IMG/VR virus record: IMGVR_UViG_3300046741_000008
Coordinates: 1 to 56,043 of that record
Length of the DNA stretch: 56,043 bases
From: a virus
Taxonomy: Duplodnaviria; Caudoviricetes
Reading direction: 5' to 3' (one strand)
Shown: positions 4,737 through 26,037 of the stretch, piece by piece
Layout: each line of letters starts with the position of its first letter
How positions within the stretch are numbered: position 1 is the stretch's first letter
Position numbers and translations under genes: made by a program
Notes under the pieces: generated by a model
What the model saw: only the letters and a program-made list of their open reading frames with translations
Databases searched by the model: none
Told to the model about the DNA's origin: nothing

Positions 4737-5671
4737 TAGAAAAGGACGACATCGATTTCGCGTTCTACGAAGAATCGACCGAGCCGCGGACCAAGGTGCG
4801 CAAGGCGTCGGTGTTCCGGGAAGACCTGGAACAGACGTTCACGAAGCGTGGCTATGCCGATGCGCTGCCGCACATGAACTCGACGAAGCTCGGCCGCGGG
4901 CTGGAGTTCAGGCCCGGCGAGGTCACCGTCTGGGCCGGCTACAACAAGCACAAGAAGTCGATGTTCACCGGCCAGGTCGCGCTTGACCTGTGCGGGTTCG
5001 GCCGCCGGGTGCTGGTCATCAGCCTGGAAATGCTGGTCACGGCCACCCTGGCCCGCATGGCGCGCCAGGCCATCGCCAAGGAATGGCCGAGCCACGCCGA
5101 GCTGGCTGAGTTCACCGAGTGGACGGACGGGCACCTGTGGATGTTCGACCACGTCGGCAAGCTCACGCCCAGGCGCTGCATCGCCATCCTTCGCTACTTC
5201 GCCAGCGAGTTGAATGGCACCGACGTGTTCATCGACAACCTCATGCGCGTCTGCCAGTCCGAGGAAAGCCTCGACGAGCAGAAGGCGCTGATCTCCGACC
5301 TGATGGACGTGGCCAAGGAAACCGGCTTGCATGTGCACCTCATCGCGCACTGCAAGAAGCCTGCGGGCGGCGACGACAGCAAGCCGCCAACGCGCTACGA
5401 CGTGCGAGGCTCCAGCACCATCAGCGACCTGCCGCACAACGTGGTGCTGGTCTGGGCCAACCGCGGCAAGGCCGAGTCGCTGCGCAAGGACGCGAACAAC
5501 GTCAAGGCCGCGGACGAGCCCGATGCCCTGATCACAGTCGACGCCCAGCGCAGCGGCTCATTCGAGGGCAAGGTCGCGTTGTGGTTCGATCACACGTCCC
5601 TGCGCTTCGTCAACGATCGCATGTCGCGCGTCGAGCCGTACAACATGCAGCGAGAACTGCAGCCGGCATGA
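4724..5671 (+). CDS. DnaB-like (SF4) replicative helicase domain
   Basis: RPGEVTVWAG...KS, VLVISLEM, VFIDNL, HVHLIAH, DVRGSSTISD motifs. Confidence 0.85.
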   Translation: MARMIEKDDIDFAFYEESTEPRTKVRKASVFREDLEQTFTKRGYADALPHMNSTKLGRGLEFRPGEVTVWAGYNKHKKSMFTGQVALDLCGFGRRVLVISLEMLVTATLARMARQAIAKEWPSHAELAEFTEWTDGHLWMFDHVGKLTPRRCIAILRYFASELNGTDVFIDNLMRVCQSEESLDEQKALISDLMDVAKETGLHVHLIAHCKKPAGGDDSKPPTRYDVRGSSTISDLPHNVVLVWANRGKAESLRKDANNVKAADEPDALITVDAQRSGSFEGKVALWFDHTSLRFVNDRMSRVEPYNMQRELQPA

Positions 5672-5711
5672 CACCGCACACCTACACCGAGCAACGAGCA
5701 AAGGCATTCGA

Positions 5712-6032
5712 ATGAGCACGACAAACAACGACATCGAGCTGCTTGAGTTGGCGGCGAAGGCTGCAGGGATCAGGTGGGATCACGAAGAGTGCGGGACGCT
5801 CTATTTGCTTGACCCGTTACGGCCATGGGAACCGATCAACGACGACGGCGACGAGGCGCGGCTTGAGGCAAAGCTGCGCTTGCGGGTCATCTGGTACGGC
5901 AACTGTGTGAGCGTCGGCCATGACGGCTCTGGCGCCATCGAGTTCTTCCAAGACCACGGCGGCGACGAGCAGGCTGCCAGGCGCTATGCCGGCGTCCGCG
6001 CTGCTGCAGCCATCGGGAGCGCGATGCCATGA
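5712..6032 (+). CDS. Conserved phage hypothetical protein
   Basis: ELLELAAKAAG...WEPINDDGD...RAAAAIG motif. Confidence 0.7.
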   Translation: MSTTNNDIELLELAAKAAGIRWDHEECGTLYLLDPLRPWEPINDDGDEARLEAKLRLRVIWYGNCVSVGHDGSGAIEFFQDHGGDEQAARRYAGVRAAAAIGSAMP

Positions 6033-6496
6033 GGGTCCTCGCAATAGACCCCGGCAGTGAAGAAAGCGGCTGGATCCTGTACGAGCCTGGCCACGTCATC
6101 GACAGCGGGACCGGCGACAACCACGACGTTCTGCGCTGGGTAGCGGCCGGCCAGGGCGCTGACGTGCTGGCCATCGAGTTCGCCGAGAGCTTCGGCCAGA
6201 AGGTCTGGAGCCAGGTGTTCACCACCACGCGCTGGGTGGGTCGGTTCCAGCAGGCCTGGCGCGCTCCTGACGAAGTGGTGCTCGTCACGCGGTCGCAGAT
6301 CAAGCTGGAGCTGCTCGGGCGCCGCGCTGGGGCCGACAAGGACATCCGGCAGGCTCTGCTGGATCGCGTCGGCTTGCCTGGCAAGAAGTCGGCGCCGGGC
6401 CCGACCTACGGCGTCACGTCGCACGCCTGGGCCGCGCTGGCGGTCGCCGTGACATACGCGGCGAAGCACTGCCGCACCGACGAACCAGCTTTCTGA
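6029..6496 (+). CDS. RuvC-like Holliday junction resolvase / RNase H-fold nuclease
   Basis: MRVLAIDPG...G W, LAIE, KD and AWAALAVA motifs. Confidence 0.75.
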   Translation: MRVLAIDPGSEESGWILYEPGHVIDSGTGDNHDVLRWVAAGQGADVLAIEFAESFGQKVWSQVFTTTRWVGRFQQAWRAPDEVVLVTRSQIKLELLGRRAGADKDIRQALLDRVGLPGKKSAPGPTYGVTSHAWAALAVAVTYAAKHCRTDEPAF

Positions 6497-7342: not shown

Positions 7343-7785
7343 GCCGCAAGCGCTGCAACCGCCGGCCTGTGACGCCGCTTCCGCCGCGAGGCCTGCGCGC
7401 TAAGCTGGACCAGAGCCAACTGCGCGACCTCGGGCTGTGCCACCTGGTGAACCTGGACGCCATCGCCACGGGCACGGCCGACGCTGGCCTGCTCTGGAGC
7501 TTCTGCGGTGGCGTGCTGACCTGGTCGCGTGTAGCCTCGCTGCTCAAGGTGGGTGAGGCCGAGTTGGCCATGCAGCTCGACTTGGCCCTGGCGGTGGTCG
7601 AGCGCTTCAAGCGCACCGGCCGCGTCGGCTTCAGCGGACCCGAGTACCAGCTCGCCAAGGAAGGCATCGGCTACATGGACGACCTCGCGGCCATCGTGGA
7701 CCGGCCGACTGCGATCGCGGCGGCGGAATGGAGCGAGCAGAGATGCAACGAACTGGCGCGAGCGAGCGAAAAGCAAGCGGCATGA
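7339..7785 (+). CDS. Conserved phage hypothetical protein
   Basis: ATGA-coupled; host-like codon usage. Confidence 0.7.
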   Translation: MSRKRCNRRPVTPLPPRGLRAKLDQSQLRDLGLCHLVNLDAIATGTADAGLLWSFCGGVLTWSRVASLLKVGEAELAMQLDLALAVVERFKRTGRVGFSGPEYQLAKEGIGYMDDLAAIVDRPTAIAAAEWSEQRCNELARASEKQAA

Positions 7786-8009
7786 CACTGAGCGAATTCG
7801 ACGAATGGATGCAGGCCCTCGAAGCGGCATCCGATGACCCAGAGGGCGTGCGGTACGACTCGCTGTGGCGGATCGTCAGTGCCAAGGTCGATGAGATGGA
7901 GGCAGGCGAGTACATCGTGTGCCCGGCCGAGCACTACGCCGACGCGATCAAGTGGGCGGCCTTCTGGCTGGCGCTTGGCGCTGTCCTGGTTGCGCTGGTG
8001 CTGCGATGA
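7782..8009 (+). CDS. Small protein with a C-terminal TM helix
   Basis: WAAFWLALGAVLVALVL tail; ATGA-coupled. Confidence 0.6.
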   Translation: MTLSEFDEWMQALEAASDDPEGVRYDSLWRIVSAKVDEMEAGEYIVCPAEHYADAIKWAAFWLALGAVLVALVLR

Positions 8010-8242
8010 GCTGCCCTGACTGCGAAGCCGCCAGCAAGGCGCTGCACCACGGTTTCCACGCATCGTGCCCAGGCTGCGCGGCCCGGGCAGTCAGTCGGGG
8101 GCCGAACTACCGCCGCTGCCTCGCCAACGGCACGCAGGACCGGCTCTACCGCGACGAGCTGGAGCTGCTGAAGGTCACACACCAGGCCGTGCGCGAAGCC
8201 GCGGCGGCCGATCGACTGAACCAATCCGAAAGGACGACATGA
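8006..8242 (+). CDS. Small Zn-binding protein
   Basis: CPDC...CPGC; ATGA-coupled. Confidence 0.6.
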   Translation: MSCPDCEAASKALHHGFHASCPGCAARAVSRGPNYRRCLANGTQDRLYRDELELLKVTHQAVREAAAADRLNQSERTT

Positions 8243-8901
8243 GCACCGCAAACGACCTGACGCCCGAAGAACTCGCGGCCTACAGCGAAGCAAAGCGCCA
8301 AGAAGAGAACCGCCTCGACCAGCGCATCGCCGCCCGCCCGGCGCCCAAGGTCACGCCGGCGGACATCGAGGCGGAGATCGCCAGCGAGCACTACTTCACG
8401 GCAGAGGCTGGTGTCTACGGCATGGCTGCATTCGCGAGCGACAGCGAATTGGCCGTGTCGGAAGTGGAAGCCCACACCCCGTCCGAGCTGGCGCTGCTCA
8501 CCTTCGCCGTCTTGGTCCTGAAAAACGGCTTCACGGTCACCGGCGAGTCGGCCTGCGCCAGCCCGGAGAACTTCGACGCGCAGATCGGGCGCGAGGTGGC
8601 GCGCAAGGCGGCGGTGGCGAAGCTGTGGCCGCTACTTGGGTTCCGCCTTCGTGACCAATTGGCCAATGCGAAGCGGAAGCCGGCTGAAGATCCGATCGAG
8701 ATCGTCAGCACGACGACCATGCTTGATCCGAACGACTTCGGGCACATCGTCACCTACGAAGCAAAGAAGGGCGCCAAGACGGCAAGCGCCAGGCTGCGGA
8801 CCAGCAAGTTCACCTCAACGGCCGCAATGCAAAACGAGGCTTTCCGCCTGTTGCACGAGGAATTCGCGCGGCAAGACGACGACCGCCAGCAGGGCGCCTG
8901 A
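8239..8901 (+). CDS. Gp49/Gp66-family protein (PF13876-like) with a C-terminal extension
   Basis: TPADIEAEIASEHYFTA...LTFAVLVLKNGFTVTGESACASPENFDAQIG...KLWPLLGF signature. Confidence 0.85.
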   Translation: MSTANDLTPEELAAYSEAKRQEENRLDQRIAARPAPKVTPADIEAEIASEHYFTAEAGVYGMAAFASDSELAVSEVEAHTPSELALLTFAVLVLKNGFTVTGESACASPENFDAQIGREVARKAAVAKLWPLLGFRLRDQLANAKRKPAEDPIEIVSTTTMLDPNDFGHIVTYEAKKGAKTASARLRTSKFTSTAAMQNEAFRLLHEEFARQDDDRQQGA

Positions 8902-8931
8902 GCAACCATCCACCAACAGGAGAGCACCACC

Positions 8932-9444
8932 ATGGAAGAACAGAAGCCCGTCACCCACATCGTTCCAAGCGTCGGCCGCGTTGTCTGGTACTGGCCAGGC
9001 GGCGACGACGTTCATACCGACATGATGTGGTCGCCTAATTCTGGGCAGCCGCTGCGGGCCGATATTTGCTACGTGCACGATTGCGGCACGGTCAATCTCA
9101 GCATCAACGACTTGGCCGGGAAGCCGTTCGCGCGCCTTGACGTAACCCTGCACCAAGGCGACGCCGAGGGCTGCAGCCTGCCGCGGCCGTTCGCGACGTG
9201 GATGCCGTACCAGCTCGAAATGGCGCTGAAGCAGTGGATCTCGCAGGACGACGATCGACGGGCCAACGAGCGCCAGGAGCGCTTCACGAAGCCCGACAGT
9301 GAAAGCGACACCGCTGAATTGCAACGGCGCATGCTGGCCGAGCAGTTGCGCGAGCTTCGCCTGCGGAACGACGCGCAGGAGATGACCAACCAGCATCTGA
9401 GCAAACCCCTTCCGGGCATGCCGACGATGCACAAGGACGCCTGA
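8932..9444 (+). CDS. Conserved phage hypothetical protein
   Basis: PSVGRVVWYWP...VNLSI...WMPYQ motif; strong RBS. Confidence 0.75.
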   Translation: MEEQKPVTHIVPSVGRVVWYWPGGDDVHTDMMWSPNSGQPLRADICYVHDCGTVNLSINDLAGKPFARLDVTLHQGDAEGCSLPRPFATWMPYQLEMALKQWISQDDDRRANERQERFTKPDSESDTAELQRRMLAEQLRELRLRNDAQEMTNQHLSKPLPGMPTMHKDA

Positions 9445-10772: not shown

Positions 10773-11265
10773 AGATGTAAGAGATATCGTCGAATATGAC
10801 AAGCAGACCGGAGAACTGCGTTGGAAAGTCGACATGCGCACAGGCAGTGTGCGCCAGGTTGTCTTAGGGAAGGCTGGTGAAGTTGCTGGGACAAAGAACA
10901 AGCACCACGGCTATGTGACGATCAGAATAAATGGAAGGCAATATATAGCCCATCGAGTCGCATGGTGGTTGGCCACTGGTGAATGGCCAATTGCAATTGA
11001 CCACAAAGATGGCGATAGGGCCAACAACAAATTCGAGAACCTTCGCGCGGCGGATTACAAGATAAATAACCAGAACAGGCGACGTGCAATACCAAATTCG
11101 ACAACTGGTTTTCTCGGCGTAACAAGGACCCCAGAAGGGAGATTCGTCGCCAGGATCGGGGTGAATGGAAAGAACCTCTATTTCGGGACGCACGAGACGC
11201 CAGAACAGGCTCACGAGGCCTACCTCGCCGCCAAACGCGAGTTTCACGAAGGCTGCACGATTTGA
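10753..11265 (+). CDS. HNH homing endonuclease with an AP2-like C-terminal domain
   Basis: YIAHRVAW...IDHKDGDRANNKFENLR...N; GFLGV...FVARIGVNGKNLYFGTHETPEQAHEAY; lower GC. Confidence 0.9.
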   Translation: MTPPPSEDVRDIVEYDKQTGELRWKVDMRTGSVRQVVLGKAGEVAGTKNKHHGYVTIRINGRQYIAHRVAWWLATGEWPIAIDHKDGDRANNKFENLRAADYKINNQNRRRAIPNSTTGFLGVTRTPEGRFVARIGVNGKNLYFGTHETPEQAHEAYLAAKREFHEGCTI

Positions 11266-12053
11266 AGCGCGCCCTCGTCACTCTCAAGGCCCAGCCTCAT
11301 TACCGGCGCGAGTCGTTCGAGGCCGGTCTGCGCGCGATCGGCTTCGATGTCGTGAAGCGGCTGGACGACCCGCGGCCCGGGGATTGCCTCATCGTTTGGA
11401 ACCTGCAGGGAGCCACCGAGAAGCTGGCCGACACCTTCAAGGCGCGCGGCGCGCAGGTGCTGGTTTGCGAAAACGGCTACCTGACGCCGCCCGGCCAGCC
11501 CGGCATGTACGCGGTGAGCCTCGGGGCGCACAACGGCGCTGGCCGCATCCCCGCCGGCGACAGCAGCCGCTGGCGGGCGCTGGGCATAGAGCCGAAGCCC
11601 TGGCGCAAGGAGGGCGACCACATCCTGGTCTGCCAGCAGAGGTCGATCGGCTCCAGGCAGATGGCCAGCCCGCACATGTGGCACCAGAAGGCCGTGGAGC
11701 GGCTGAAGCGCTGGACGAAGCGCCCGATCCGTGTGCGGCCTCACCCTGGCAACCGCAGCGGCGGTGTGCCGCTGGAGCGCGACCTGAAAGGCGCATGGGC
11801 CTGCGTGATCTGGGGCTCGGCAGCTGGCGTGCGGTCGCTGGTAGAGGGGGTCCCGGTGTTTTACGAAGCACCCCGATGGATCTGCAGCGACGCCGCGCTG
11901 CCGCTGCGCGACTGGATCGAGCACCCGCTGTGCAACGATGCGTGGCGCGAGAAAGCCCTGCACCGCATGGCCTGGGGCCAGTGGCAATATGCCGAGATCG
12001 CAACCGGCGGCCCTCTCAAGGCCGTTCTTGACTGCAAGGAGTCCGCAGCATGA
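11262..12053 (+). CDS. KpsC/KpsS (Capsule_synth, GT107/GT99)-like glycosyltransferase
   Basis: VLVCENGY, HILVCQQ, IRVRPHP and VIWGSAAGVRSLVEGVPVF motifs. Confidence 0.65.
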   Translation: MKRALVTLKAQPHYRRESFEAGLRAIGFDVVKRLDDPRPGDCLIVWNLQGATEKLADTFKARGAQVLVCENGYLTPPGQPGMYAVSLGAHNGAGRIPAGDSSRWRALGIEPKPWRKEGDHILVCQQRSIGSRQMASPHMWHQKAVERLKRWTKRPIRVRPHPGNRSGGVPLERDLKGAWACVIWGSAAGVRSLVEGVPVFYEAPRWICSDAALPLRDWIEHPLCNDAWREKALHRMAWGQWQYAEIATGGPLKAVLDCKESAA

Positions 12054-12586
12054 CGCCCACCGAGAAATTCCACCGCAAGTTCCGCAAGCCCAAGGAAGGG
12101 GCGACGCTGATCGTCGGCTCGCACATCTACCCCACGCGCGAGGACCGGCGCAAGCTGTACGCGGATGCGGTGGGCGTGGACATGCAGGAAGGGCCGGGGG
12201 TCGATGTCGTGGCCAACCTGGAAGAACCGCTCGACTGGATCCCCGAGGAGTTCCTGTTCGATCACATCGAGTGCCGCAGTGTGCTTGAGCACAGTCGCCG
12301 TCCCTGGCTGCTGGCGGCGAACCTGGAGCGCCTGTTGGTGCCGGGTGGGACGTTGGACATCAGCGTTCCTTTCGTCTGGCGCGTGCACAGCTACCCGTCG
12401 GACTACTGGCGCTTCAGCATCGAGGCCGTGCGCGAGCTCTTCCCCAGCATCCAGTGGCGCGCGCTGCGCTACGTGACACAAAAAAGAATTGAGAAGCCAG
12501 ATGCTCCGACGCAGGGGCTCGTGAACGACTCACAAACGTACTTCGCACGCTCTGAAGTACTCGGATTTGGGACCAAGAAATGCTGA
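12050..12586 (+). CDS. Class I SAM-dependent methyltransferase
   Basis: GVDMQEGPGVDVVANL, FDHIECRSVLEH, LLVPGG and HSYPSDYWRF motifs, typical of glycan-cluster methyltransferases. Confidence 0.85.
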   Translation: MTPTEKFHRKFRKPKEGATLIVGSHIYPTREDRRKLYADAVGVDMQEGPGVDVVANLEEPLDWIPEEFLFDHIECRSVLEHSRRPWLLAANLERLLVPGGTLDISVPFVWRVHSYPSDYWRFSIEAVRELFPSIQWRALRYVTQKRIEKPDAPTQGLVNDSQTYFARSEVLGFGTKKC

Positions 12587-13059
12587 CACAAGCGAGGCTT
12601 CATGAGCTGTTCACGCTGGATGCGGGTAAGTTCAAACGGTTGGTGAGAACGAGCAACCGCATCCGCGTCGGCGACGTTGCTGGATACAAGCGCGATGGCT
12701 ACGTCTTCGTCACCGTAGACGGTAAGGGGTACAGAGCCCATCGGCTCGTCTGGCTGTACATCCACGGCGTCTTGCCGCCGCACGAAGTTGACCACATCAA
12801 CCACATCAAGGACGACAACCGCATTGAGAACCTCAGGCTCGCGACGAAGAGCGAGAACATGCAGAACAGGCGAGGGGCACAAAGCAACAGCAATTCCGGC
12901 GTTCTCGGGGTTTGCTGGTTCAAACCCACGCGACAGTGGGTTTCCCAACTCACTCTCAACGGCAAGCGCGTGCACCATAGTTACCACTACACGTTAGAAG
13001 ACGCCTGTGCCGCCCGGCGCGCCGCTGAGATACGCTTCCACCCATACAGAAGCGCATGA
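12580..13059 (+). CDS. HNH homing endonuclease
   Basis: YRAHRLVWLYIHG...VDHINHIKDDNRIENLRLATKSENMQN; SGVLGV. Confidence 0.9.
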   Translation: MLTQARLHELFTLDAGKFKRLVRTSNRIRVGDVAGYKRDGYVFVTVDGKGYRAHRLVWLYIHGVLPPHEVDHINHIKDDNRIENLRLATKSENMQNRRGAQSNSNSGVLGVCWFKPTRQWVSQLTLNGKRVHHSYHYTLEDACAARRAAEIRFHPYRSA

Positions 13060-13910
13060 GAATCCTCGTTACCGGACGCGGCACCTCCGGCAGCTGGCAG
13101 GTGCGCGGGGTACAACTCGGCAAAGCCATCGGCGCCACGGTGAGCCCGAACGCCAGCGATCTCGAGATCCGTGCCCACGACCTGGTGATCCTGGTCAAGC
13201 GGCCGACACCGCAGCTGCTCGAGCGCATCCACCAGGCGCGCAAGCCGCTGGTGTGGGATCAGGTGGACTCGTGGCCGCAGCCTGAAGGCAACCGCTGGGC
13301 TCGAGGTGAGTGCATGGCGTGGCTCGAGCACCAGGTCAAGACCATCAAGCCGGCCGGCATCGTGGCTGCCACTCAGGAGATGGCCTTCGACTGCGGCTGG
13401 GGCGCGCCTGACCAGACGAAGCTGCTCTGGCTGCCACACCACTCGAGGTCCGGTCAGGACGCGAATCCGATCCGCGAGCAAGTGCAGACCGTTGGATACG
13501 AGGGCGGCTTGCAGTACCTCGAGGGCTGGCTTCCGCACATCGAGCGCCAATGTGCAACTCGAGGCTGGCGGTTCCACGTCGCGCCCAAGCGATTGGCTGA
13601 CCTCGACATCGTGCTGGCGCTGCGAACCGACACCGGGTACGCGCCGCGGAACTGGAAATCAGCGGTCAAGGCCGCAAACGCCATGGGCACCGGCACGCCC
13701 ATCATTGCCTGCCGTGAAGGCGGCTACCTCGAGGTGGACAATGGCGGCATGCGCTGGGCTGACACGCCGCTCGAGCTGTCTCGAGCTTTCGACGAGCTGA
13801 CGCCGAAGGATGCTCGAGCAGCTGCAGCGGCCCGGCTCAAGCTCCAGGCGCCGTTCGTTGCGCTCGATCGGCTGGCCAAGGAATACGCGCGCTGGCTCGA
13901 GACCATATGA
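13056..13910 (+). CDS. GT-B-fold (GT4-like) glycosyltransferase
   Basis: GSWQVRG, DLVILVK, WDQVD, VGYEG and WKSAVKAANAMGTGTPII (K..A.A.G.P.I donor-binding motif). Confidence 0.6.
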   Translation: MRILVTGRGTSGSWQVRGVQLGKAIGATVSPNASDLEIRAHDLVILVKRPTPQLLERIHQARKPLVWDQVDSWPQPEGNRWARGECMAWLEHQVKTIKPAGIVAATQEMAFDCGWGAPDQTKLLWLPHHSRSGQDANPIREQVQTVGYEGGLQYLEGWLPHIERQCATRGWRFHVAPKRLADLDIVLALRTDTGYAPRNWKSAVKAANAMGTGTPIIACREGGYLEVDNGGMRWADTPLELSRAFDELTPKDARAAAAARLKLQAPFVALDRLAKEYARWLETI

Positions 13911-14686
13911 ACCGCGTCGAGTACCTGACCGACCCGGCCCTCGGGACCAAGGCCACAAATTTCATGCAGATCCTGGGCGAGTGCTGCCCGGTGCCGTTTT
14001 CTGCTGTGGAGGCACCAAGCAGTCCCGAGGTGACGCTGATGGTATGCGGCCCAGGCGCCCCCTCACGGCTGGCCATCGCGAACGCCCACCGCGCTAAGGG
14101 CGGCCGGGTGGTGATCTGGGACGGCGGCTACTTCCGGGCACCAGGCTACTGGCGCACCAGCGCCGACCACGAGCACCCACAGCACCTGCTGGACCGCGCG
14201 CCGGCGGACAAGTCGAGATTCGCCGCGCTGAAGATCCAGCTTCGCAACGACTTCAACCCGAAGGGCCACATCATCCTGGTCGGCCTGGGCCCGAAGACCC
14301 GCGACATCATGGACGTGAAGGACTGGGAGGCGCGCAAGCTGTGCGAGCTGCGCCAGCGCTTCCCCAAGGCGAGGATCATCTTCCGACCCAAGCCTAAGAG
14401 GCCGCATCCGGTGCTCAATATTCCGGTCTCCAAAGATGTGCCCATCGAGCAGGTGCTCAGGGGTGCGGCGCTGGTGGTGTGTAAGCATTCAAATTGTGGT
14501 GTCGACGCTGTGGTTGCCGGGATTCCATTCGAGACGGAAGATGGGGCCGCCAAGTGGCTGGATGGCAAGGCCTACACGCCGGCCAATCGCCTGGAGTTCC
14601 TGCAGCGCCTGGCCTGGTTCATGTGGCGTTCGGACGAAGCGCCTCAGGCGTGGACAATGGTGGCCAGAATGTTGGAGACGCCATGA
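13907..14686 (+). CDS. Second KpsC/KpsS-like glycosyltransferase (paralogue of 11262-12053)
   Basis: VIWDGGYF, GHIILVG, IIFRPKP and VCKHSNCGVDAVVAGIP motifs align with the first copy. Confidence 0.65.
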   Translation: MNRVEYLTDPALGTKATNFMQILGECCPVPFSAVEAPSSPEVTLMVCGPGAPSRLAIANAHRAKGGRVVIWDGGYFRAPGYWRTSADHEHPQHLLDRAPADKSRFAALKIQLRNDFNPKGHIILVGLGPKTRDIMDVKDWEARKLCELRQRFPKARIIFRPKPKRPHPVLNIPVSKDVPIEQVLRGAALVVCKHSNCGVDAVVAGIPFETEDGAAKWLDGKAYTPANRLEFLQRLAWFMWRSDEAPQAWTMVARMLETP

Positions 14687-15201
14687 AGGTTCACATTGGA
14701 TGCGGCCGGCACGTTCTCGACGGCTGGGTCAACGTCGACACCCAGCGATCGCCCAAGGCCGCCCGCGCTCCGGACGTGATTGGCGACGCGCTGAGTATCC
14801 CGCTTCCTGACGGGTGTGCATCCGAGGTGATGGCCATTCACCTCCTGGAGCACCTCGCGGCCTGGCAGGTACCAAAGGCCCTGGCCGAGTGGCACCGCCT
14901 GCTCAAGCCTGGCGGCCTGCTGGTATTGGAAATGCCGGATGTCGTGAAGTGCGCCAAAAACCTGGTCAAGCTGATCGAGAAGGGCGACGAGAAGACGCTC
15001 AACTCCCAGGCGATGCACGGCCTCTACGGCGATCCCAGCATGGAAGATCCGTGGATGCTTCACCGGTGGGGGTGGACTCCAAAGACCCTGATACCGGTCC
15101 TGAAGCGCGCCGGCTTCGGACTCTTCAAAGAGCGGCCGACGCAGTGGCATGGCATCGGCAAGGCGCACCGGGATTTCCGCATCGAGTCGAGGAAGGTATG
15201 A
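14683..15201 (+). CDS. Class I SAM-dependent methyltransferase (Methyltransf_11-like)
   Basis: KVHIGCG...GWVNVD, HLLEHL, EWHRLLKPGGLLVLEMPD. Confidence 0.9.
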   Translation: MKVHIGCGRHVLDGWVNVDTQRSPKAARAPDVIGDALSIPLPDGCASEVMAIHLLEHLAAWQVPKALAEWHRLLKPGGLLVLEMPDVVKCAKNLVKLIEKGDEKTLNSQAMHGLYGDPSMEDPWMLHRWGWTPKTLIPVLKRAGFGLFKERPTQWHGIGKAHRDFRIESRKV

Positions 15202-15884
15202 GCCTCCTGAACATCTTTACCGGGCACGAAGACCGCGTCGCAATCGGAACCCACGTCTTCGTGCAGTCGGTGCTGGACCACGCCAAGAGCCCGGTGTCGA
15301 TCGCGCCCATCACTCGCATCGCTACGCCTGGCCACTCCGAGGGCTCGAATGCCTTCACCGCACGCAGGTTCCTGGTGCCCCATGCCATGGGCCGCTGCGG
15401 CTTTGCGCTGTTCTGCGACGGCGCCGACATGCTCGCCCGGGCCGACATCAACGAGGTGCTGCAGTACGCCAGCCACCGGCACGCCGTGATGGTGGTCAAG
15501 CATCACTACAAGACCCGCAACGTCCGCAAGTACCGCGGCACGGCCATGGAATCCGACAACGAGGACTACGAGCGCAAGCAGTGGGCCGCCGTGATGTTGT
15601 TCAACTGCCGTCACCCGGTCTGGATCGACGTGACGCCCGAGTTCGTGAAGAAGACGCCAGTCATCGACCTGCTGCAGTTCCGGTTCCTGCCCGAGGAGCT
15701 GATCGGGGAACTGCCGATGGAGTGGAACTGGCTGGCCGACGAGCACGGCGAGAACCAGGCGGCGAAACTCCTGCACTTCACGGCCGGCGTCCCGGCCATC
15801 CCTGCGCATGCATCCGGGCCGATGGCCGACGAGTGGATCGCCACCCGGGCGCGCGCAATGTCAGCAACAGGAGGCGCATCATGA
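15198..15884 (+). CDS. GT-A nucleotide-diphospho-sugar transferase (GT8/CDI-like)
   Basis: GSNAFTARRFLVP, ALFCDGADML (DxD-like), VMVVKH, RKQWAAVMLFNC, EWNWL and LLHFTAG motifs. Confidence 0.85.
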   Translation: MSLLNIFTGHEDRVAIGTHVFVQSVLDHAKSPVSIAPITRIATPGHSEGSNAFTARRFLVPHAMGRCGFALFCDGADMLARADINEVLQYASHRHAVMVVKHHYKTRNVRKYRGTAMESDNEDYERKQWAAVMLFNCRHPVWIDVTPEFVKKTPVIDLLQFRFLPEELIGELPMEWNWLADEHGENQAAKLLHFTAGVPAIPAHASGPMADEWIATRARAMSATGGAS

Positions 15885-16312
15885 GCTCAACGCAAGAACA
15901 CCCCCGCCCGGCCTGGATCCACCCGGAGCACCCTGGAATCGGCTGCAGCACCAGCCTGAAGCGCCTGGAGGGCACCGAACCAGAGGTCGGCGGCGTGATC
16001 ATCTTCTTCCCCAGCGGCCTGTTCCATGACATCAGCTGGCGCGCCGTGCAGCACATTACCCCAACGAAGGAAGCGGCGGTTCGCTTCGTCGGCCAGATCG
16101 TCGAGGACCTGAACAAGAAGGCAGCTCGAGCAGAAGGCCCAGCCCGCGAAGCCATCGAGCAGGACTTGGCCCGCACGAACTGGGTCAGCGTCACCGCAGC
16201 GGTGCAGCGGGTGATCATGGACTGGAACGACAAGCTGTCCACCGCCATCAGTGCCAAAATGGCCCAGCAGTTCGGCGGCAACCCCTGGCCCCCGAAGCAC
16301 CGAACCCACTGA
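15881..16312 (+). CDS. Hypothetical protein linking the glycan cassette to terS
   Basis: ATGA-coupled to the GT-A gene, with RBS. Confidence 0.65.
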   Translation: MSSTQEHPRPAWIHPEHPGIGCSTSLKRLEGTEPEVGGVIIFFPSGLFHDISWRAVQHITPTKEAAVRFVGQIVEDLNKKAARAEGPAREAIEQDLARTNWVSVTAAVQRVIMDWNDKLSTAISAKMAQQFGGNPWPPKHRTH

Positions 16313-16330
16313 CCTGAGAGGAACCCGGCC

Positions 16331-16864
16331 ATGCCGATCCTGAAGAACGCCAAGCACGAGAGATTCGCCCGCGAGTACGTCACAGACCGCAACGGCACAC
16401 AGGCTGCCATCAGGGCCGGTTACTCGAAGCGGAGCGCAGCCGAGCAGGCTTACGATCTCCTCAGGAACCCTCAGATAGCCTCCAGGGTCGATGAACTGAG
16501 CCAGCGCACCCTGCGCCAAGCTGACATCACAGCCGAACGCGTCATGCTGGAACTGGCACGCCTGGCCTTCGCTGACGAGCGCAAGTTGTTCGACGAGAAG
16601 GGCGTGCTCAAGGCCCCTCACACCCTCGACGACGACACCGCAGCCGCTATCTCATCCATGGAGTTCGCTGAACCGGCGAAGGGTAAGAAGCAGGGCGCTG
16701 TGCGCCGCGTGCGCTTGGCGGGTAAGGAAGCCGCTCTACGCATGCTGGCCCAGCGCTTCAAGCTGATCGGCAGCGAGGCGGACGAGGCGCTGAACAACCT
16801 GGCGATGTCCTTCGCCGAGAAGGTTGCAGCGGCCCGCGCACGCCGCAAGGACGAAAGCAAGTAG
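16331..16864 (+). CDS. terS: Terminase small subunit
   Basis: KHERFAREY...NGTQAAIRAGYSKRSAAEQAYDLLRNPQI (Terminase_2 pattern). Confidence 0.95.
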   Translation: MPILKNAKHERFAREYVTDRNGTQAAIRAGYSKRSAAEQAYDLLRNPQIASRVDELSQRTLRQADITAERVMLELARLAFADERKLFDEKGVLKAPHTLDDDTAAAISSMEFAEPAKGKKQGAVRRVRLAGKEAALRMLAQRFKLIGSEADEALNNLAMSFAEKVAAARARRKDESK

Positions 16865-17039
16865 TCAGAAATCCCGGCCACCACCGACGGCGACGAAAAA
16901 TCACGCAAGTTCACGTGGCAGAAAACCGCGCAGACTCACTACGCGCCGCTGGGCCGAACTGAACAAAGCACCGTCTGAGGCCGAAAAGGCGCGATTGGCA
17001 GACAATCCGACCACCACCAACCGTTCACCCGGAGGCCTC

Positions 17040-17300
17040 ATGAAGCCCACCAAGCCAGGCAACCACCTGATCGACCCGCAGCGCATCCGCGCGCTGGGCA
17101 CCGGCATCGGCCAGAGCCAGCAGCGCAGCAAGACCACCGGCGGCATGCGAGCGCAGAAGGTCGCTGACATGATGACGCCGAAGGTTCGGAGCATCGCCGC
17201 CCCGGGCTACCCGCCCGTCGATCCGATGATGGCCGACATCCGGCAGGACTATCCCGGGCTGGACGCCGCGCTTCCGGTCAACGGCGACGTTCCCTGCTGA
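17040..17300 (+). CDS. Hypothetical protein
   Basis: GGAGG RBS; TGATG overlap with terL. Confidence 0.6.
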   Translation: MKPTKPGNHLIDPQRIRALGTGIGQSQQRSKTTGGMRAQKVADMMTPKVRSIAAPGYPPVDPMMADIRQDYPGLDAALPVNGDVPC

Positions 17301-18838
17301 TGGGAACAGCTGGCGCCCAGGCCAGCGCGCCGATGAGCGAGCGCCAGCAGATTGAGGCCGCGCTCGCGGAGATAGCCGATCGGTTCGTCGAATACGAGTT
17401 CGACCCGCTCGGCTTTGTCATGTGGGCCTTCCCCTGGGGCGTGCCTGGTACTGACCTCGAGGGTGAGGATGGGCCGGAGCAGTGGCAGATCGACCAGCTC
17501 ACCCGCATTGGGGACAAGCTGCGCGCTGGCGCCGACCTCGGGGCGGTGCTCAAAGAGGACATCAGCGCCGGCCACGGCGTCGGCAAGAGCGCCGAGGTTG
17601 CGTGGCTGATCCTCTGGGCCATGTCCCGCGAGGACACCCGAGGCGTCGTGACGGCGACCACGGCCACGCAGCTCAAGACGAAGACCTGGGCCGAGCTGGC
17701 CAAGTGGTATCAGCTCTACGTGGCGAAAGAGCTATTCACGCTCACCACGGAGTCGCTTTACTCGGCTGACCCTGACCACGCCAAGACGTGGCGGATCGAC
17801 GCGGTGCCGTGGTCGGTGTCGAACACCGAGTCGTTCGCCGGCATGCACAACAAGGGCAAGCGCATCCTGCTGATCTTCGACGAGGCCTCAGGCATCGACG
17901 ACAAGATCTGGGAGGTCGCCGAGGGCGCGCTTACCGACGCGAAGACGCAGATCGTCTGGTGCCGCTACGGCAACCCGACGCAGACCACCGGCGAGTTCCA
18001 CAAGCGCTGCACGCGGCCGAAGCCTGGCATCAACGAGTACCACCGGGTCGACAGCCGCACGGTCAGGTTCACGAACAAGAAGCAGATCCAGGCGTGGGTC
18101 GACGAGTACGGCGAGGACAGCGACTTCGTGCGCGTGCGCGTCAAGGGCCAGTTCCCGCGGGCCGGCGCATCCAACTTCATCAGCCCGGAGCTGGTGGAGA
18201 ACGCGCGCCGCCGTCGCGTGCCGCGCATGGCTTGGCAGGCCTATCCCATCATCCTGAGCGTCGACCCGGCTCGCTTCGGCGACGACTGGAGCGTCATCAC
18301 GATACGCCAGGGCCTGAAGGTCCACTACCAGGTGTCGATGTGGGGGTTCGACGGGCCGGAGCTGGCTGGCCGCATCTGGGAGCTGCTCCAGAAGCTGGAG
18401 AACGTTTCGTGCATCGTCTACGACGCCAACGGAAACGGGGCCGACCTCGACAGCGCGCTGAGGCGCATGCCGGGCCTACCGCCGCTCGTGCCGGTGATGT
18501 GGGGCGTGCCGGCCAAGGACGACAAGCAGTATTTCAACCAGCGCAGCGAGTGCTGGGGAAAGATGCGCGACTGGATGAAGGACGGTGAGGTGCCCGACGT
18601 CGACGAGCTGGCCGATGAGCTGACGAGCATGGACTACGGCTACGACGCGCTGTTTCGCATCCAGTTGGTCAGCAAGCAGGACATGAAGCGCGAGGGGAAG
18701 AAGTCGCCCGATCACGCCGACAGCCTGGCGTTGAGCTTCATCCCGGAGCTGATGGATCGCAAGATCGTCTCGGCCAAGGCCAGGCCGGTGCGCAGCCGCA
18801 AAATCGTTTGGTCCGGCAACGGGCTCGGAGTAGGATGA
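17300..18838 (+). CDS. terL: Terminase large subunit
   Basis: Walker A AGHGVGKS, Walker B LIFDEASG, GNPT, nuclease SVDPARFGDD and SPDHADSLAL. Confidence 0.95.
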   Translation: MGTAGAQASAPMSERQQIEAALAEIADRFVEYEFDPLGFVMWAFPWGVPGTDLEGEDGPEQWQIDQLTRIGDKLRAGADLGAVLKEDISAGHGVGKSAEVAWLILWAMSREDTRGVVTATTATQLKTKTWAELAKWYQLYVAKELFTLTTESLYSADPDHAKTWRIDAVPWSVSNTESFAGMHNKGKRILLIFDEASGIDDKIWEVAEGALTDAKTQIVWCRYGNPTQTTGEFHKRCTRPKPGINEYHRVDSRTVRFTNKKQIQAWVDEYGEDSDFVRVRVKGQFPRAGASNFISPELVENARRRRVPRMAWQAYPIILSVDPARFGDDWSVITIRQGLKVHYQVSMWGFDGPELAGRIWELLQKLENVSCIVYDANGNGADLDSALRRMPGLPPLVPVMWGVPAKDDKQYFNQRSECWGKMRDWMKDGEVPDVDELADELTSMDYGYDALFRIQLVSKQDMKREGKKSPDHADSLALSFIPELMDRKIVSAKARPVRSRKIVWSGNGLGVG

Positions 18839-19191: not shown

Positions 19192-21435
19192 ATGGCATCA
19201 CCTCTTGTTCGCCAACTTGGCCTTCAGGCCCTTCTGAAGCGCGACGCGGCCGAGCCGCCGGCACCACAGGACATCTCGCAGGACGTGTGGCCAGCCCTGG
19301 CCGGGCACGTGCGGGCAGCCTGGGGCCGCAACAAGCTGGCGAAGCAGCAGGTTGATCTGCACTTGCTCGATTGCCTGCGGGCGCGGCGCGCGGTGTACTC
19401 TCCGGCGCAGATCAGCGTGATCCAGCAGGCCGGCGGCGGGGCGAACATCGTCTTTACCAAGCTGACAGAGACGAAGTGCCGAGCCGGCTCCGCGTGGATC
19501 CGAGACATCGTGCTGCCGGTGGGCGAGCGGCCGTGGGGGCTGGAGCCGACGCCGATCTCTGAGCTGCCCAAAGAGCTGATGGACATGATCGCCAACAAGG
19601 CAGAGCAGCAGGCGCAAGAGGTCATGGTTGCTCAGTACCAGCAGGCCCAGCAGCAGACGCCTGACGGGCAGGTGGTGCCAACGCCGGTGATGAGCCCGCA
19701 GGACTTCAAACAGAAGGTTTTCGAGTTGAAGGACAAGCTGCGCACCGAATGCGAGGCCCGCGTCACGAAGCTGGCCGATATCCGCGCTAAGCGCATGGAG
19801 CGCCAGATCGACGACCGGCTGGCCGAGGGTGGCTGGGCTGAGGCTATGGACGCCTTCGTCGAGGACTTCGTGACCTACCCAGCGGCCATCATGAAGGGGC
19901 CGGTGTACCAGCGAGTGCAAACCCTGACGTGGGAATCCGGCTGGGTGCCTAAGGTCAGCAACGACCCGAAACAGTGCTGGGAGCAGGTCAGCCCGTTCGA
20001 TGTCTACCCGGCGCCGAGCGCCAAGGATGCGCAGAAGGGCGACTTCATCGAGCGCATGCGGCTGTGGCGAAACACGCTGTTCGACCTGAAGGGGCTGCCC
20101 GGCTTCCAGGACGATCAGATCGACAAGGCCCTGCGCGACTACAGCGGCGGCCACCTCGAAGGCTGGCTGTGGACCGAGGCCGAACGCCAGCGCTTGACGC
20201 AGGAATCCATGTACATGTGGCTGAGCCCCCCCGGGGTGATCGACGCCCTGAACTACTGGGGCGCGGTGCCGGGCTGGCAACTGATGTCCTGGGGCGTTGA
20301 GGGCATCGACGAGCCGACTCGGGACTACGAGTGCAATGTGATCCTGATCGGGCGATACGTGGTCTATGCCGCGCTGAACAGCGACCCGCTTAGCGCGCGC
20401 CCGTACCGCAAGGCCTGCTACGACGAGATCCCTGGTGCGTTCTGGGGCTGCTCAGTGCCCGACCTGGCCGGAGACTGCCAGAAGTTTTGCAACGCCATCG
20501 CCCGCGCCATGGCCGACAACCTATCGATGGCCAGCGGCCCACAGGTCTGGGTGCACGCCGACCGCTTCGCCGACGGCGAGAACAGCATCGAGCTGTACCC
20601 GTGGAAGGTCTGGCAGCTCAAGAGCGACCCCACGCAGGGCGTGAACCCCGGCATCGGCTTCTTCCAGCCGCCCGACAACAGCGCCAACCTGAACGCGGCC
20701 TATGAGAAATGGGAGATGCGCGCGGACGATGCGACCGGCATCCCTCGCTACACCTACGGCAACGAGCGCGTCGGGGGTGCTGGGGACACGGCCTCGGGCC
20801 TTGCCATGCTGCTCAACAGCGCCGCCAAGGGCCTGCGCCGGGCTATCAGCAACATCGACATGCACGTCATCGGGCCGAACATCTTCTCGACGTTCGTGAA
20901 CGAGATGCTCTACAACCCGGACGAGAGCATCAAGGGCGACTGCAAGGCTGTTCCACGTGGAGCAGCCGCGATCCTGATCAAGGACAGCGCGCAGCAGCGG
21001 CGCATCCAGTTCCTGGGCATGACGGCCAACCCGATCGACATGCAGATCATCGGCGTCAAGGGCCGGGCCGCGGTGCTGCGCGAGGTGGCCAACAGCATGG
21101 AGCTAGACACCGACGCCATCGTGCCGAGCGAGGAGCAGCTTGAGCAGCAGCAGGAGGCGGCGGCACAAGCTCAGGCCCAGCAGCAGCAGGCGATGATGCA
21201 GGCCGAGGGCGCCAAGATGCAGGCCGAGCAGCAGGGCCAGATGGCGATCGAGCAGCAGAAGATCCAGGGGCAGAAGGAAATCGCCCAGATGAAGGGTGGC
21301 GCTGCCCAGCAGGACGTGATGACGACCCTGATCGCCGACATCGTGAAAGCGAATCTCGCCAGCAAGAGCGGGGCGGAGCAGCCACAGGCGATCATGCCGA
21401 AGACCGGTCTTGAGGTCGCCCGCTCGGCGGTCTGA
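19192..21435 (+). CDS. Portal protein (podovirus type)
   Basis: 747 aa after terL; VSPFDVYP, FWGCSVPDL, DNLSMASGP and TASGLAML motifs; Q-rich helical C-terminus. Confidence 0.85.
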   Translation: MASPLVRQLGLQALLKRDAAEPPAPQDISQDVWPALAGHVRAAWGRNKLAKQQVDLHLLDCLRARRAVYSPAQISVIQQAGGGANIVFTKLTETKCRAGSAWIRDIVLPVGERPWGLEPTPISELPKELMDMIANKAEQQAQEVMVAQYQQAQQQTPDGQVVPTPVMSPQDFKQKVFELKDKLRTECEARVTKLADIRAKRMERQIDDRLAEGGWAEAMDAFVEDFVTYPAAIMKGPVYQRVQTLTWESGWVPKVSNDPKQCWEQVSPFDVYPAPSAKDAQKGDFIERMRLWRNTLFDLKGLPGFQDDQIDKALRDYSGGHLEGWLWTEAERQRLTQESMYMWLSPPGVIDALNYWGAVPGWQLMSWGVEGIDEPTRDYECNVILIGRYVVYAALNSDPLSARPYRKACYDEIPGAFWGCSVPDLAGDCQKFCNAIARAMADNLSMASGPQVWVHADRFADGENSIELYPWKVWQLKSDPTQGVNPGIGFFQPPDNSANLNAAYEKWEMRADDATGIPRYTYGNERVGGAGDTASGLAMLLNSAAKGLRRAISNIDMHVIGPNIFSTFVNEMLYNPDESIKGDCKAVPRGAAAILIKDSAQQRRIQFLGMTANPIDMQIIGVKGRAAVLREVANSMELDTDAIVPSEEQLEQQQEAAAQAQAQQQQAMMQAEGAKMQAEQQGQMAIEQQKIQGQKEIAQMKGGAAQQDVMTTLIADIVKANLASKSGAEQPQAIMPKTGLEVARSAV

Positions 21436-21438
21436 CGC

Positions 21439-24400: not shown

Positions 24401-24600
24401 ACCTCAGCCTGCCGGTCGCATCTGCGCTGTCCGCGGCCACCCAGTGCGTAGGAACCGGATCGATCCTCACGGCAGGCACTGAGGTCGCCGGGGTGGCTAT
24501 CAGCGCCAACGCAACCAACGACCGTGCCCGTGCGACCTTCGTCTCGACATCGAACGCGGCCCGCACCTACACCTTGGTTTTCGGCTACATCGTCATCTAA
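21439..24600 (+). CDS. Fibre-like virion protein with nested repeats
   Basis: Ala/Thr/Gly/Ser-rich; [14 protein letters not shown]...LPYFTG repeats, three G.LG.F.GSDG..F.EAARI modules, two RFGD...GR.DY modules; fibre-type C-terminal YTPTL...WIRIGN domain. Confidence 0.8.
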
Positions 24601-24625
24601 GCCGGTTCGCCGCATAATCGCGCCC

Positions 24626-24925: not shown

Positions 24926-24997
24926 GATCGACCGTTCCTACCGACCCGAACCCCAGTGGCATGGGCCTGATGCCTGGATCGTGGAGACACTGAACAA

Positions 24998-26019: not shown

Positions 26020-26037
26020 CGACACTTAGGAGCCATC

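Follow-up and report, generated by a model that had tools for sequence, protein, structure and literature searches.

The window, by which we mean the whole 56,043-nucleotide stretch of DNA analyzed here, is a complete 56-kb phage genome from a soil metagenome, and the 127-bp direct repeat at its two ends indicates a circular assembly. Twelve of the 17 CTCGAG palindromes in this genome fall within a single gene of 855 bp (gene E), which belongs to a gene module upstream of the terminase genes:

11262..12053, + strand: gene B, conserved module member; none of its five possible CTCGAG positions is used
12050..12586, + strand: gene C, SAM-methyltransferase-like, of small-molecule type (weak Methyltransf_23, Methyltransf_12 and Methyltransf_11 matches); none of five possible positions used
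12580..13059, + strand: gene D, HNH_3 homing-type endonuclease (Pfam HNH_3, 4e-18; phrog_99, 3.5e-62; PADLOC homing endonuclease)
13056..13910, + strand: gene E, GT-B/GT4-like glycosyltransferase of 284 amino acids that carries the 12 sites
13161..13901, no strand: CTCGAG array, 12 exact palindromes at irregular spacings of 10-170 bp in three frames
13907..14686, + strand: gene F, module member; none of five possible positions used, the nearest of them 116 bp past the last site
14623..15201, + strand: gene G, class-I SAM methyltransferase (Methyltransf_11, 2.8e-9; weak MftM-type match); none of three possible positions used
15197..15884, + strand: gene H; none of three possible positions used
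16125..16130, no strand: lone CTCGAG, 201 bp upstream of the TerS start
16331..16864, + strand: small terminase subunit, TerS (Pfam Terminase_2, 4e-30; phrog_51)
17300..18838, + strand: large terminase subunit, TerL (phrog_2, 9e-36), with one CTCGAG at 17456

The order B-C-E-F-G is syntenic in most of 72 loci from relatives, and among these loci gene D lies between C and E only in the present phage. The codon usage of gene D is the most atypical of 38 genes in the window, and its one Leu-Glu (LE) dipeptide is written TTAGAA. Near the module in relatives, tblastn recovered terminases at 0 loci, and phrog_2 matched 0 of 5 records, with no candidates.

Although the protein encoded by gene E matched nothing in Pfam, PHROG, NCBIfam or PADLOC, its AlphaFold model is predicted with high confidence (pLDDT 96.9) and adopts a two-Rossmann GT-B fold. 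The best Foldseek matches were HepE (4xsu, E-value 7e-10), a mannosyltransferase (7qsg) and SenB; 475 PDB matches were obtained at E-values up to 0.001, led by HepE, MshA, BshA and SenB, with TMq values of 0.63-0.73 for the closest structures. Homologues number 651, three of which carry a precomputed PF13579 assignment. We take gene E to be a conserved, working glycosyltransferase gene.

Saturation of gene E with CTCGAG

All 12 starts listed in the original prediction were recovered exactly (13161, 13218, 13300, 13323, 13442, 13518, 13558, 13728, 13770, 13780, 13813 and 13896). Of the five further sites that it placed by eye, those at 16125, 17456 and 31336 were correct, while the two given as 36286 and 43044 begin one base later, at 36287 and 43045. 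Its reading of the codons also stood: the sites use all three frames (CTC-GAG at seven, NCT-CGA-G at four and CAC-TCG-AGG at one), and all four NCT-CGA-G sites rest on codons that are rare in this genome (CGA, 9%; NCT, 4-11%).

Codon choice within the gene does not account for this density. When synonymous codons were permuted within gene E, a mean of 3.03 and a maximum of 9 sites resulted, and none of 20,000 shuffles gave 12; when codons were resampled from genome usage, the mean fell to 1.15 and the maximum to 6, again with 0 of 20,000 reaching 12. In a scan statistic over all hexamers, CTCGAG scored ~7e-16, compared to 2e-6 for the next unrelated word. Within gene E, every LE dipeptide (7/7) and every [SPTA]R[VADEG] triplet (4/4) is written with CTCGAG, as is one of two xS[SR] triplets. 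The unused triplet overlaps a site that is used, and since the two cannot coexist, 12 of 12 mutually compatible positions are filled. In the rest of the genome, using a crude gene set, the same words are written as CTCGAG at 2 of 82, 1 of 80 and 1 of 68 opportunities. The array is confined to the open reading frame (ORF) of gene E: none of the 22 possible positions in genes B, C, D, F, G and H is used. Among 7025 ORF-by-palindrome tests covering 592 ORFs, just four reached a saturation of 0.8, this array included, and the words in the other three ORFs are built from preferred GC-rich codons.

It is the exact word that is enriched. One-mismatch variants of CTCGAG were not enriched in gene E (7 versus 4.2 expected, P = 0.10), and the other AvaI and SmlI variants occur across the genome at an observed/expected ratio (O/E) of ~1 and are scarce in the gene (0 to 0.5 per word). 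The array is not a tandem repeat, TRF detecting only a 10-bp row of 2.9 copies at 13770-13799, and helical phasing of its sites was not significant (P = 0.079). The mRNA fold of gene E is no more stable than that of shuffled sequences (z = 0.08), Rfam gave 0 matches over 11000-16500 at E-values up to 0.1, and a promoter and terminator scan gave no signal. In general, these observations support selection on the exact DNA hexamer rather than on protein, RNA fold or degenerate variants of the word.

Saturation appears to have involved the protein as well. Gene E offers 13 potential CTCGAG positions, compared to a mean of 4.8 and a maximum of 10 in 60 homologues; the site-compatible residues are the minority state among these homologues at 11 of the 12 sites and so look derived. 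Relative to the closest homologue (P0002, 82-83% identical), 12 of 29 site residues differ, versus 39 of 255 others (Fisher's exact test, P = 0.0016). By these sequence comparisons, the sites were apparently created partly through lineage-specific residue replacement, besides synonymous choice. Homologues do not keep them: ~67 distinct homologue loci carry 0-2 sites each.

DNA of close relatives was sought by blastn and tblastn against the phage collection, without a match, and by an IMG/VR scan with the E protein alone, which also returned none; scans with alignments reached identities of at most 64%. Contigs from run X2 contain 151-nt pieces that are identical over 13312-13589. Runs X3-X5 hold a ~94% variant in which none of the differences listed (18 in 13373-13481) falls within a site, but the variant has 92 further differences and ~73% of sites would survive by chance at 5% divergence, so their retention says little.

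Purge of CTCGAG from the rest of the genome

Outside gene E, five CTCGAG sites were observed where a Markov model expects 26.4 (z = -5.5, O/E 0.19), the second-lowest value among 4096 hexamers. A density like that of the array elsewhere in the genome would have spoken against the original prediction, and it was not found. GACGTC, AAGCTT, AGATCT and GAGCTC are depleted as well; avoidance is reversed locally, in gene E, for the most strongly purged word. Sites that remain for the other purged palindromes are not concentrated in the array region, where a general restriction-tolerant zone was sought and not found, and 1113 tests of other palindromes in relatives gave 0 clusters below P = 1e-3. Relatives that lack an array purge CTCGAG too, with one site in the 59.6 kb of G415, two in G416 and none in G417 or G418, which indicates that phages of this kind need no array.

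Among the genes of the phage, searches that included Pfam and PADLOC revealed no DNA methylase, endonuclease or other candidate reader of CTCGAG. Of 401 genomes sampled from the likely host order, in which prophages related to the module occur, 15 encode XhoI-family endonucleases.

Islands on the terminase side in other viral contigs

The last site of the array lies 2430 bp upstream of the TerS start and 3399 bp upstream of TerL, with genes F, G and H in between. Four further CTCGAG islands occur in unrelated viral contigs, 0.6-2.3 kb from TerL, and among the matches listed all five non-repeat islands sit on the 5' side of TerL. The nearest site is 2265 bp upstream of TerL in G001, 1778 bp in G002 (where the island extends over 5 kb) and 1784 bp in G007. 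The G008 island, 598 bp upstream, abuts the ORF just before TerL and adjoins an anti-restriction gene (phrog_7245, 6.5e-72). This positional rule comprises five picked cases among the matches listed, and accessory DNA may simply tend to insert in the region before the terminase genes. A tblastn comparison of window proteins with G001-G003 found, as shared genes, only a marginal 33-residue match to G001 (E-value 7e-4). The G002 island is foreign in composition (GC3 0.74-0.84 versus about 0.5), and the G001 genome writes LE as CTCGAG by default (46/72).

Several candidate analogues were rejected: G003 and the initial part of G006 consist of tandem repeats, and G004, G005, G009, G010 and G419-G428 are CTCGAG-rich genome-wide. 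A triple scan for GAATTC yielded clusters that are nearly all periodic repeats and no clear analogue.

Discussion

We tentatively read the array as a selected, cis-acting patch of XhoI/PaeR7I-type sites associated with the chromosome's packaging end, a reading that we hold at somewhat less than even confidence. Saturation, confinement to one ORF, the derived state, the exactness of the word, the purge elsewhere and a position held in common with four islands are observed; from them we infer what might read the array and how it would work. Selection would have maximized CTCGAG as far as the E protein tolerates, through synonymous choice and through swaps at tolerant residues. In many phages, following the rule known from lambda, DNA immediately ahead of the terminase genes enters the capsid last and the cell first. 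A strict, hexamer-specific dimeric enzyme would be the likely reader, and the obvious candidates are a host CTCGAG methyltransferase and endonuclease, CTCGAG being reported as the PaeR7/XhoI recognition word. A host methylase could mark the patch, and its un-, hemi- or fully methylated state might then be sensed beside the packaging start. Packaging, or else the late transcription that enters the terminase operon, would thereby be coupled to how far the DNA is modified, much as Dam sites do at the pac site of phage P1. When the phage infects a restricting host, the patch would be met before any other target and would be the densest of them.

Several points count against this reading. The array is 740 bp long and lies 2.4 kb away, and the G002 island is 5 kb long, so that both exceed the known size and distance of pac and cos sites. 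Genes F, G and H stand between the array and TerS without sites. Furthermore, carrying 12 sites would be expected to cost the phage dearly wherever the host restricts CTCGAG: for lambda, one PaeR7 site alone is reported to give about 5-fold restriction.

Of the two origins offered in the original prediction, a DNA-level array is upheld in general terms by the exact hexamer, the purge elsewhere and the terminase-side islands, while recent arrival from a CTCGAG-rich donor is not supported, given the native non-site codons, the conserved synteny, the derived look of the site residues and a search that found no donor of such density. With the site codons masked, the log-likelihood per codon of gene E is ordinary for this genome (z = 0.05, rank 18 of 38), as is its dinucleotide signature, and its GC content is 0.66 versus 0.65. 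A search for a CTCGAG-rich source found no contig at 10-15 sites per kb; the richest genomes reach 5.4-5.7 per kb.

A narrower version of this idea, which we consider unlikely, is that gene E gained its sites in an unsampled close relative that favors, or does not purge, CTCGAG, and that the allele then arrived by recombination at its borders; the region before the terminase genes would then be merely a landing place for accessory DNA. Saturation does end at the ORF borders of gene E, and a homing endonuclease gene of HNH type adjoins it. What is apparently one related contig of 46,124 bp is 75% identical in gene C and 83% in gene F but only 67% in gene E; in run X3, the match of the 94% relative's contig ends upstream of 13217, and the pieces from the runs over 13116-13213 are just ~85% alike. 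Elsewhere, the G002 island is plainly foreign by GC3, and G414 is a mosaic with 11 sites in its first 16.4 kb and 0 in the other 32.7 kb. Against import, the non-site codons are native, genes E, B and C are equally far from L051 (64, 64 and 62%), and in run X4 a relative keeps 94-95% identity over C, E and F alike. The sampled homologue loci, with their sparse sites, and the sampled contigs, none of them at the required density, provide no source, and the four NCT-CGA-G sites are beyond the reach of codon bias. Moreover, import would still call for a reason behind selection of the sites, only in another genome.

Alternatively, the array may be a decoy or sink at the entering end that attracts the host endonuclease or methylase specific for CTCGAG to DNA that the phage can spare, buying time for the remaining genome or for an anti-restriction function. 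We judge this quite improbable. The number of sites is maximized, as a sink would need; by analogy with lambda, a pre-terminase position would fit the first-injected end; and the G008 island abuts an anti-restriction gene. However, a cut in the genome is normally lethal, and type II enzymes turn over, which makes titration by 12 sites impossible. A headful series would place the region near an end in the first particle only, genes F, G and H would enter earlier and carry no sites, and gene E, being conserved and functional, is not spare DNA.

Very improbable is a signal at the RNA level, with CUCGAG in the mRNA as the target of an RNA-binding factor, nuclease or small RNA that adjusts E expression within the operon. 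Enrichment is indeed limited to a single ORF of a polycistronic module whose start and stop codons overlap, and toxin cleavage words show gene-specific enrichment among MazF targets, but the fold and Rfam results lend it nothing, and a perfect palindrome purged from genes on both strands elsewhere points to double-stranded DNA.

Returning to a patch tied to the packaging end, its possible generalization is that some phages concentrate a host restriction-modification word just upstream of their terminase genes and purge it elsewhere, as a cis element not previously described that is read by host enzymes; we regard this as doubtful. Such a patch could be a packaging checkpoint for DNA modification or a lightning rod at the entry end, and the word would vary with the host. 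If the array is functional near a packaging start, phages would use host restriction-modification specificity as a signal, beyond evading it, and terminase-side site islands could become a signature for packaging ends and host restriction-modification types in metagenomes. The array is directly testable, since 12 synonymous or conservative changes would delete it without destroying the enzyme.

Comparison with known systems

Loss of restriction sites is what one expects of a phage genome, but CTCGAG has been gained to saturation in gene E, partly by protein change, within a genome that purges it. Depletion of restriction sites in phages has been reviewed, the chance of escape growing with each site removed (PMC12707154): the rest of the present genome follows this avoidance, whereas gene E inverts it. 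In the accessible portion of that review, 'decoy' and 'site avoidance' occur 0 times, and its two 'clustered' passages concern clusters of genes, not sites. Among the papers listed by our literature search, none deals with a restriction site enriched within a single gene.

Two groups of known arrays invite comparison. SopC, parC and the stoperators of mycobacteriophages consist of many copies of a short binding word, sometimes within genes, but these words are longer, mismatch-tolerant and often periodic, with a cognate binding-protein gene alongside. The word in gene E is an exact, aperiodic 6-mer whose near-matches are not enriched, and no partner gene was recognized. At oriC (SeqA), P1 oriR, Mu mom and the P22 gtr operon, local clusters of methylase palindromes report their methylation state to a DNA-binding protein, and those of Mu mom and P22 gtr control phage-borne modification or glycosyltransferase genes. 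With 3-11 sites, these clusters lie in non-coding DNA or at origins and depend on the solitary methylase Dam; to our knowledge, none of them saturates a coding sequence or uses the word of a restriction system that its genome avoids.

The pac site of phage P1 has seven TGATCA/G hexamers in 162 bp. It is short and lies inside the terminase gene pacA, whereas the 12 sites of the array span 740 bp of a glycosyltransferase gene and end 2.4 kb short of TerS: the array shows the cluster of methylase-target hexamers of a P1-type pac but not its location at the small terminase gene. P1 also encodes its own Dam, while no DNA methylase was found in the present phage, and GATC is not purged from P1, as CTCGAG is here. 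According to the accessible portion of the review cited above, which refers to Sternberg and Coulby (1990), Dam methylation at pac is needed for proper packaging of P1 (PMC12707154). What the array has in common with pac is a cluster of methylase-target palindromic hexamers inside protein-coding phage DNA, next to the genes for packaging, with an action in our case that would likewise be exerted at the level of DNA.

Site saturation within one gene

The array lies in gene E, a glycosyltransferase gene among the following features:
11262..12053 (+), gene B, unknown
12050..12586 (+), gene C, SAM-methyltransferase-like
12580..13059 (+), gene D, HNH_3
13056..13910 (+), gene E, 284-aa GT-B/GT4-like glycosyltransferase
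13907..14686 (+), gene F, unknown
14623..15201 (+), gene G, SAM methyltransferase
15197..15884 (+), gene H
16331..16864 (+), small terminase subunit gene, TerS
17300..18838 (+), large terminase subunit gene, TerL

CTCGAG occurs 17 times in the window, and 12 of these sites, all within E, lie between 13161 and 13901, exactly where the original prediction had placed them. A dinucleotide-shuffled genome contains 26.5 in total, or about 0.35 per stretch of this size. The codon-shuffled null proposed in that prediction never reproduced about 12 sites: permuting synonymous codons within E gave a mean of 3.03 (maximum 9 in 20000 trials), and drawing codons from genome usage gave a mean of 1.15 (maximum 6). 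In a scan of all hexamers, CTCGAG reached about 7e-16 and the next unrelated word 2e-6.

The E protein permits the word at 13 positions (opportunities), namely seven LE dipeptides, four [SPTA]R[VADEG] triplets and two xS[SR] triplets, of which 7/7, 4/4 and 1/2 are written as CTCGAG. Since the sole unused opportunity, LSR at 13778, overlaps a used SRA with which it cannot coexist, compatible opportunities are used in full (12/12), even rare codons making up the four NCT-CGA-G sites (CGA 9%, NCT 4-11% in genome usage). Elsewhere in the window, ORFs of a crude gene set use the same three kinds of position at 2/82, 1/80 and 1/68, and spell LE as CTCGAA 18 times and as CTCGAG twice. None of the 22 opportunities in the neighbours B, C, D, F, G and H is used, including those 116 and 161 bp past the last site and 167 bp ahead of the first. 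As a control, 592 ORFs from the window genome and the loci of 72 relatives were scored for all 64 palindromic hexamers (7025 tests, each with at least 6 possible positions); saturation of at least 0.8 occurred in 4/7025, namely CTCGAG in E and three cases of GCCGGC or GCGCGC, words composed of preferred codons.

The protein sequence has also shifted toward the word. Sixty aligned homologues average 4.8 opportunities (maximum 10), and site-compatible residues are the minority state at 11 of the 12 sites (0 to 11 of 60 homologues), LE225 being the only common site-compatible state (31/60). P0002, the closest homologue at 82% identity, differs from E at 12 of the 29 residues that form sites and at 39 of the 255 others (Fisher 0.0016). 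Retention of the family's invariant residues, together with a confident structure model (pLDDT 96.9), indicates that the enzyme was preserved while tolerant positions were rewritten. E had no match in Pfam, PHROGs, NCBIfam or PADLOC; its predicted model has a GT-B fold, nearest to the GT4-type enzymes HepE, methylmannose-polysaccharide mannosyltransferase, SenB, BshA and MshA. Most of 72 loci, drawn from viral contigs, metagenomes, and prophages of Variovorax, Curvibacter and other bacteria, keep the syntenic order B-C-E-F-G, a module that, judging from fold matches and a weak MftM-type match, most likely acts in the synthesis or modification of a methylated sugar polymer.

The enrichment is of the exact CTCGAG word, since one-mismatch words are not raised in E (7 versus 4.2, P 0.10; frequency as elsewhere). 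Other AvaI (CYCGRG) and SmlI (CTYRAG) words occur in the genome about as often as expected (observed/expected about 1) and hardly at all in E (0 to 0.5 per word), TCGA does not rise outside the sites, the array has no repeat unit, and helical phasing is not significant. We take it as established that E carries a positively selected, exact-word DNA array.

The genome and its probable restriction history

An exact 127-bp direct repeat (1-127 and 55917-56043) in this 56,043-base record, covered here in its entirety, indicates a circular assembly and a complete genome of about 55.9 kb. The best match to the window was a soil metagenome run, its probable source; identical 151-nt pieces occur in an independent rhizosphere run, and a variant of about 94% identity is present in three further runs. 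The genome encodes a tailed-phage set (TerS, TerL, SU10-type portal and adaptors, major head protein, ejection proteins, endolysin) and a lambda-like replication and recombination set (O-like initiator, DnaB-type helicase, exonuclease, Erf-like annealing protein, NinB, resolvase).

Outside E, the scarcity of CTCGAG noticed earlier by eye is real: 5 sites against 26.4 expected (Markov), making it the second most under-represented hexamer there. Depletion across the whole window of GACGTC (6 observed, 20 expected), AAGCTT (2, 12), AGATCT (1, 8) and GAGCTC (9, 21) suggests that the host range includes several restriction systems; the sites of these four words that remain show no concentration around E. 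When a strict hexamer palindrome is removed from one part of a genome and packed into another, as here, the pattern points to a restriction-modification type of reader. PaeR7 and XhoI recognise this same word and cut phage DNA in vivo (PMC545071), and XhoI-family endonucleases (PF04555) occur in 15/401 sampled genomes of the order containing Variovorax sp. JS1663, which carries a related prophage.

Homologues and the question of import

Homologues do not keep the sites, a check that the original prediction had proposed: across 70 scored loci, about 67 of them distinct and none more than 64% identical, the E homologue carries only 0-2 CTCGAG, and no other palindrome clusters there. Strong purging occurs without an array in four relatives (G415, 1 site in 59.6 kb; G416, 2; G417 and G418, 0). 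Another relative of 49 kb (G414, locus L041) has 11/11 CTCGAG in its first 16.4 kb and 0 in the remaining 32.7 kb, and looks like a mosaic of segments differing in restriction history.

Recent import from a CTCGAG-rich donor, as first proposed, is not supported. With its 29 site codons masked, E has codon usage typical of the genome (z 0.05, rank 18 of 38), and its identity to the related locus L051 (64%) is the same as that of B (64%) and C (62%). Import of an already saturated E allele is likewise unlikely given this native codon usage and a relative in run X4 that is 94-95% identical over C, E and F alike. It would, however, fit the proteins P0376, P0004 and P0273, which probably lie on one 46,124-bp Logan contig and to which C, E and F (window 12050-14686) are 75%, 67% and 83% identical; usually E shows the strongest conservation among these three. 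By these identities, E may have had its own history or have changed faster, and the mismatch, together with the grouping of the window's E with P0002 alone, makes an allele exchange confined to E possible. Such an exchange would leave the origin of the sites unexplained.

Gene D, a homing-type endonuclease gene, is placed precisely between C and E, to which overlapping stop and start codons join it, and has the most atypical codon usage among the window's 38 genes. HNH homologues (38-41%) occur elsewhere in the module in five relatives' loci (including L005, L011, L013 and L028), and in none of the relatives' loci examined does an HNH gene lie between C and E. Runs with the 94% variant have no depth over 12505-12706; these are contigs only, so the gap proves nothing.

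Islands in other viral contigs

IMG/VR was scanned twice for three CTCGAG within short gaps, each scan being a sample of matches. Dense matches among those listed were mostly tandem repeats (G003; the start of G006) or genomes rich in CTCGAG throughout, and at least four were non-repeat islands. In G002 (36.3 kb), 49/57 sites fall within 21-26 kb, where LE is written as the site 27/29 times (3/42 in the rest of the genome) and is 3.6 times commoner than elsewhere. G007 (64.9 kb) has 10 sites in 660 bp and 22/36 in 4.6 kb (11116-15717), with two small ORFs writing LE as the site 3/3 and 4/4 times, while the 5.75-kb fragment G008 has 8/8 within 560 bp (1002-1559), seven inside 200 bp. In the provirus G001 (35.1 kb), a sliding-clamp (DnaN-like) gene at 5169-6362 has 18 LE in 397 aa, 17 as CTCGAG (4.5 LE per 100 aa versus 0.76 in the rest of the provirus); because this genome writes LE as CTCGAG by default (46/72), only the LE count is unusual there. 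The only gene sharing between the window and G001-G003 was a marginal 33-residue match to G001 (E-value 7e-4).

The G002 island (21200-26100, 5 kb) is foreign in GC3 (0.74-0.84 versus about 0.5) and contains an AAA_5 ATPase; this phage encodes WhiB. In the 65.6-kb provirus G003, 37/37 CTCGAG lie inside two 23-nt tandem-repeat arrays (16405-18774 and 23954-24633), with 0 in the other ~60 kb and no GAGCTC whatever. CTCGAG outnumbers GAGCTC 318 to 0 in the 110 kb of G006, which opens with a 15-bp tandem array carrying the site, 100 to 1 in G421 and 98 to 5 in G424.

Relative to the direction of TerL transcription, all five islands (the window's and the four described above) lie 5' of that gene.

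Distance from the nearest CTCGAG site of each island to the terminase genes
Window: 2430 bp to TerS, 3399 bp to TerL
G002: 1778 bp to TerL
G001: 2265 bp to TerL; three more sites in a small DNA-binding ORF just before TerL
G007: 1784 bp to TerL (7446-9332, minus strand)
G008: 598 bp to TerL, at the start of the ORF preceding TerL

By rough post hoc arithmetic (2.5 kb over each record length, multiplied), the chance that all four long records have an island edge in the 2.5 kb preceding the first terminase gene is ~1e-5.

A possible role at the packaging end

We infer that the array is part of the chromosome's packaging end and that its readers are CTCGAG-specific restriction-modification enzymes. 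Tentatively, the methylation state of the patch may be coupled to packaging, or to late transcription into the terminase operon. Several observations weigh against the packaging reading. Annotation of the whole genome recognised neither a DNA methylase nor a restriction enzyme, a known anti-restriction gene or a candidate reader. Three genes free of sites separate the array from TerS, 2.4 kb away; patch sizes of 0.7-5 kb are large; and site-purging relatives lack an array. Furthermore, a restricting host should make twelve additional sites costly, and the region ahead of the terminase genes may simply collect accessory DNA.

Alternatively, the array could be a decoy at the entry end, consistent with the divergent anti-restriction protein gene (phrog_7245, 6.5e-72) on the other side of the G008 island, but the absence of sites from F, G and H, between array and TerS, makes this rather improbable. 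A signal at the RNA level is very improbable, as the E mRNA folds ordinarily (z 0.08) and an Rfam search found nothing; with RNA fold and near-match words excluded, the original suggestion of a DNA-level array holds in general.

Among the papers listed in literature searches, none deals with a phage restriction site enriched within a single gene. In the accessible part of a 2025 review of host-dependent restriction-modification (PMC12707154), the terms "decoy" and "site avoidance" appear 0 times, and both passages with "clustered" are about clusters of genes rather than of sites. If the patch proves to be a general strategy, it would represent a new kind of element. We rate the array as allied to methylase-site clusters acting in cis. 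At the P1 pac site, the Dam targets are clustered hexamers. This site is the nearest precedent for the array, in that packaging depends on methylation of such a cluster; the same review, citing Sternberg and Coulby 1990, describes Dam methylation at pac as required for proper P1 packaging.
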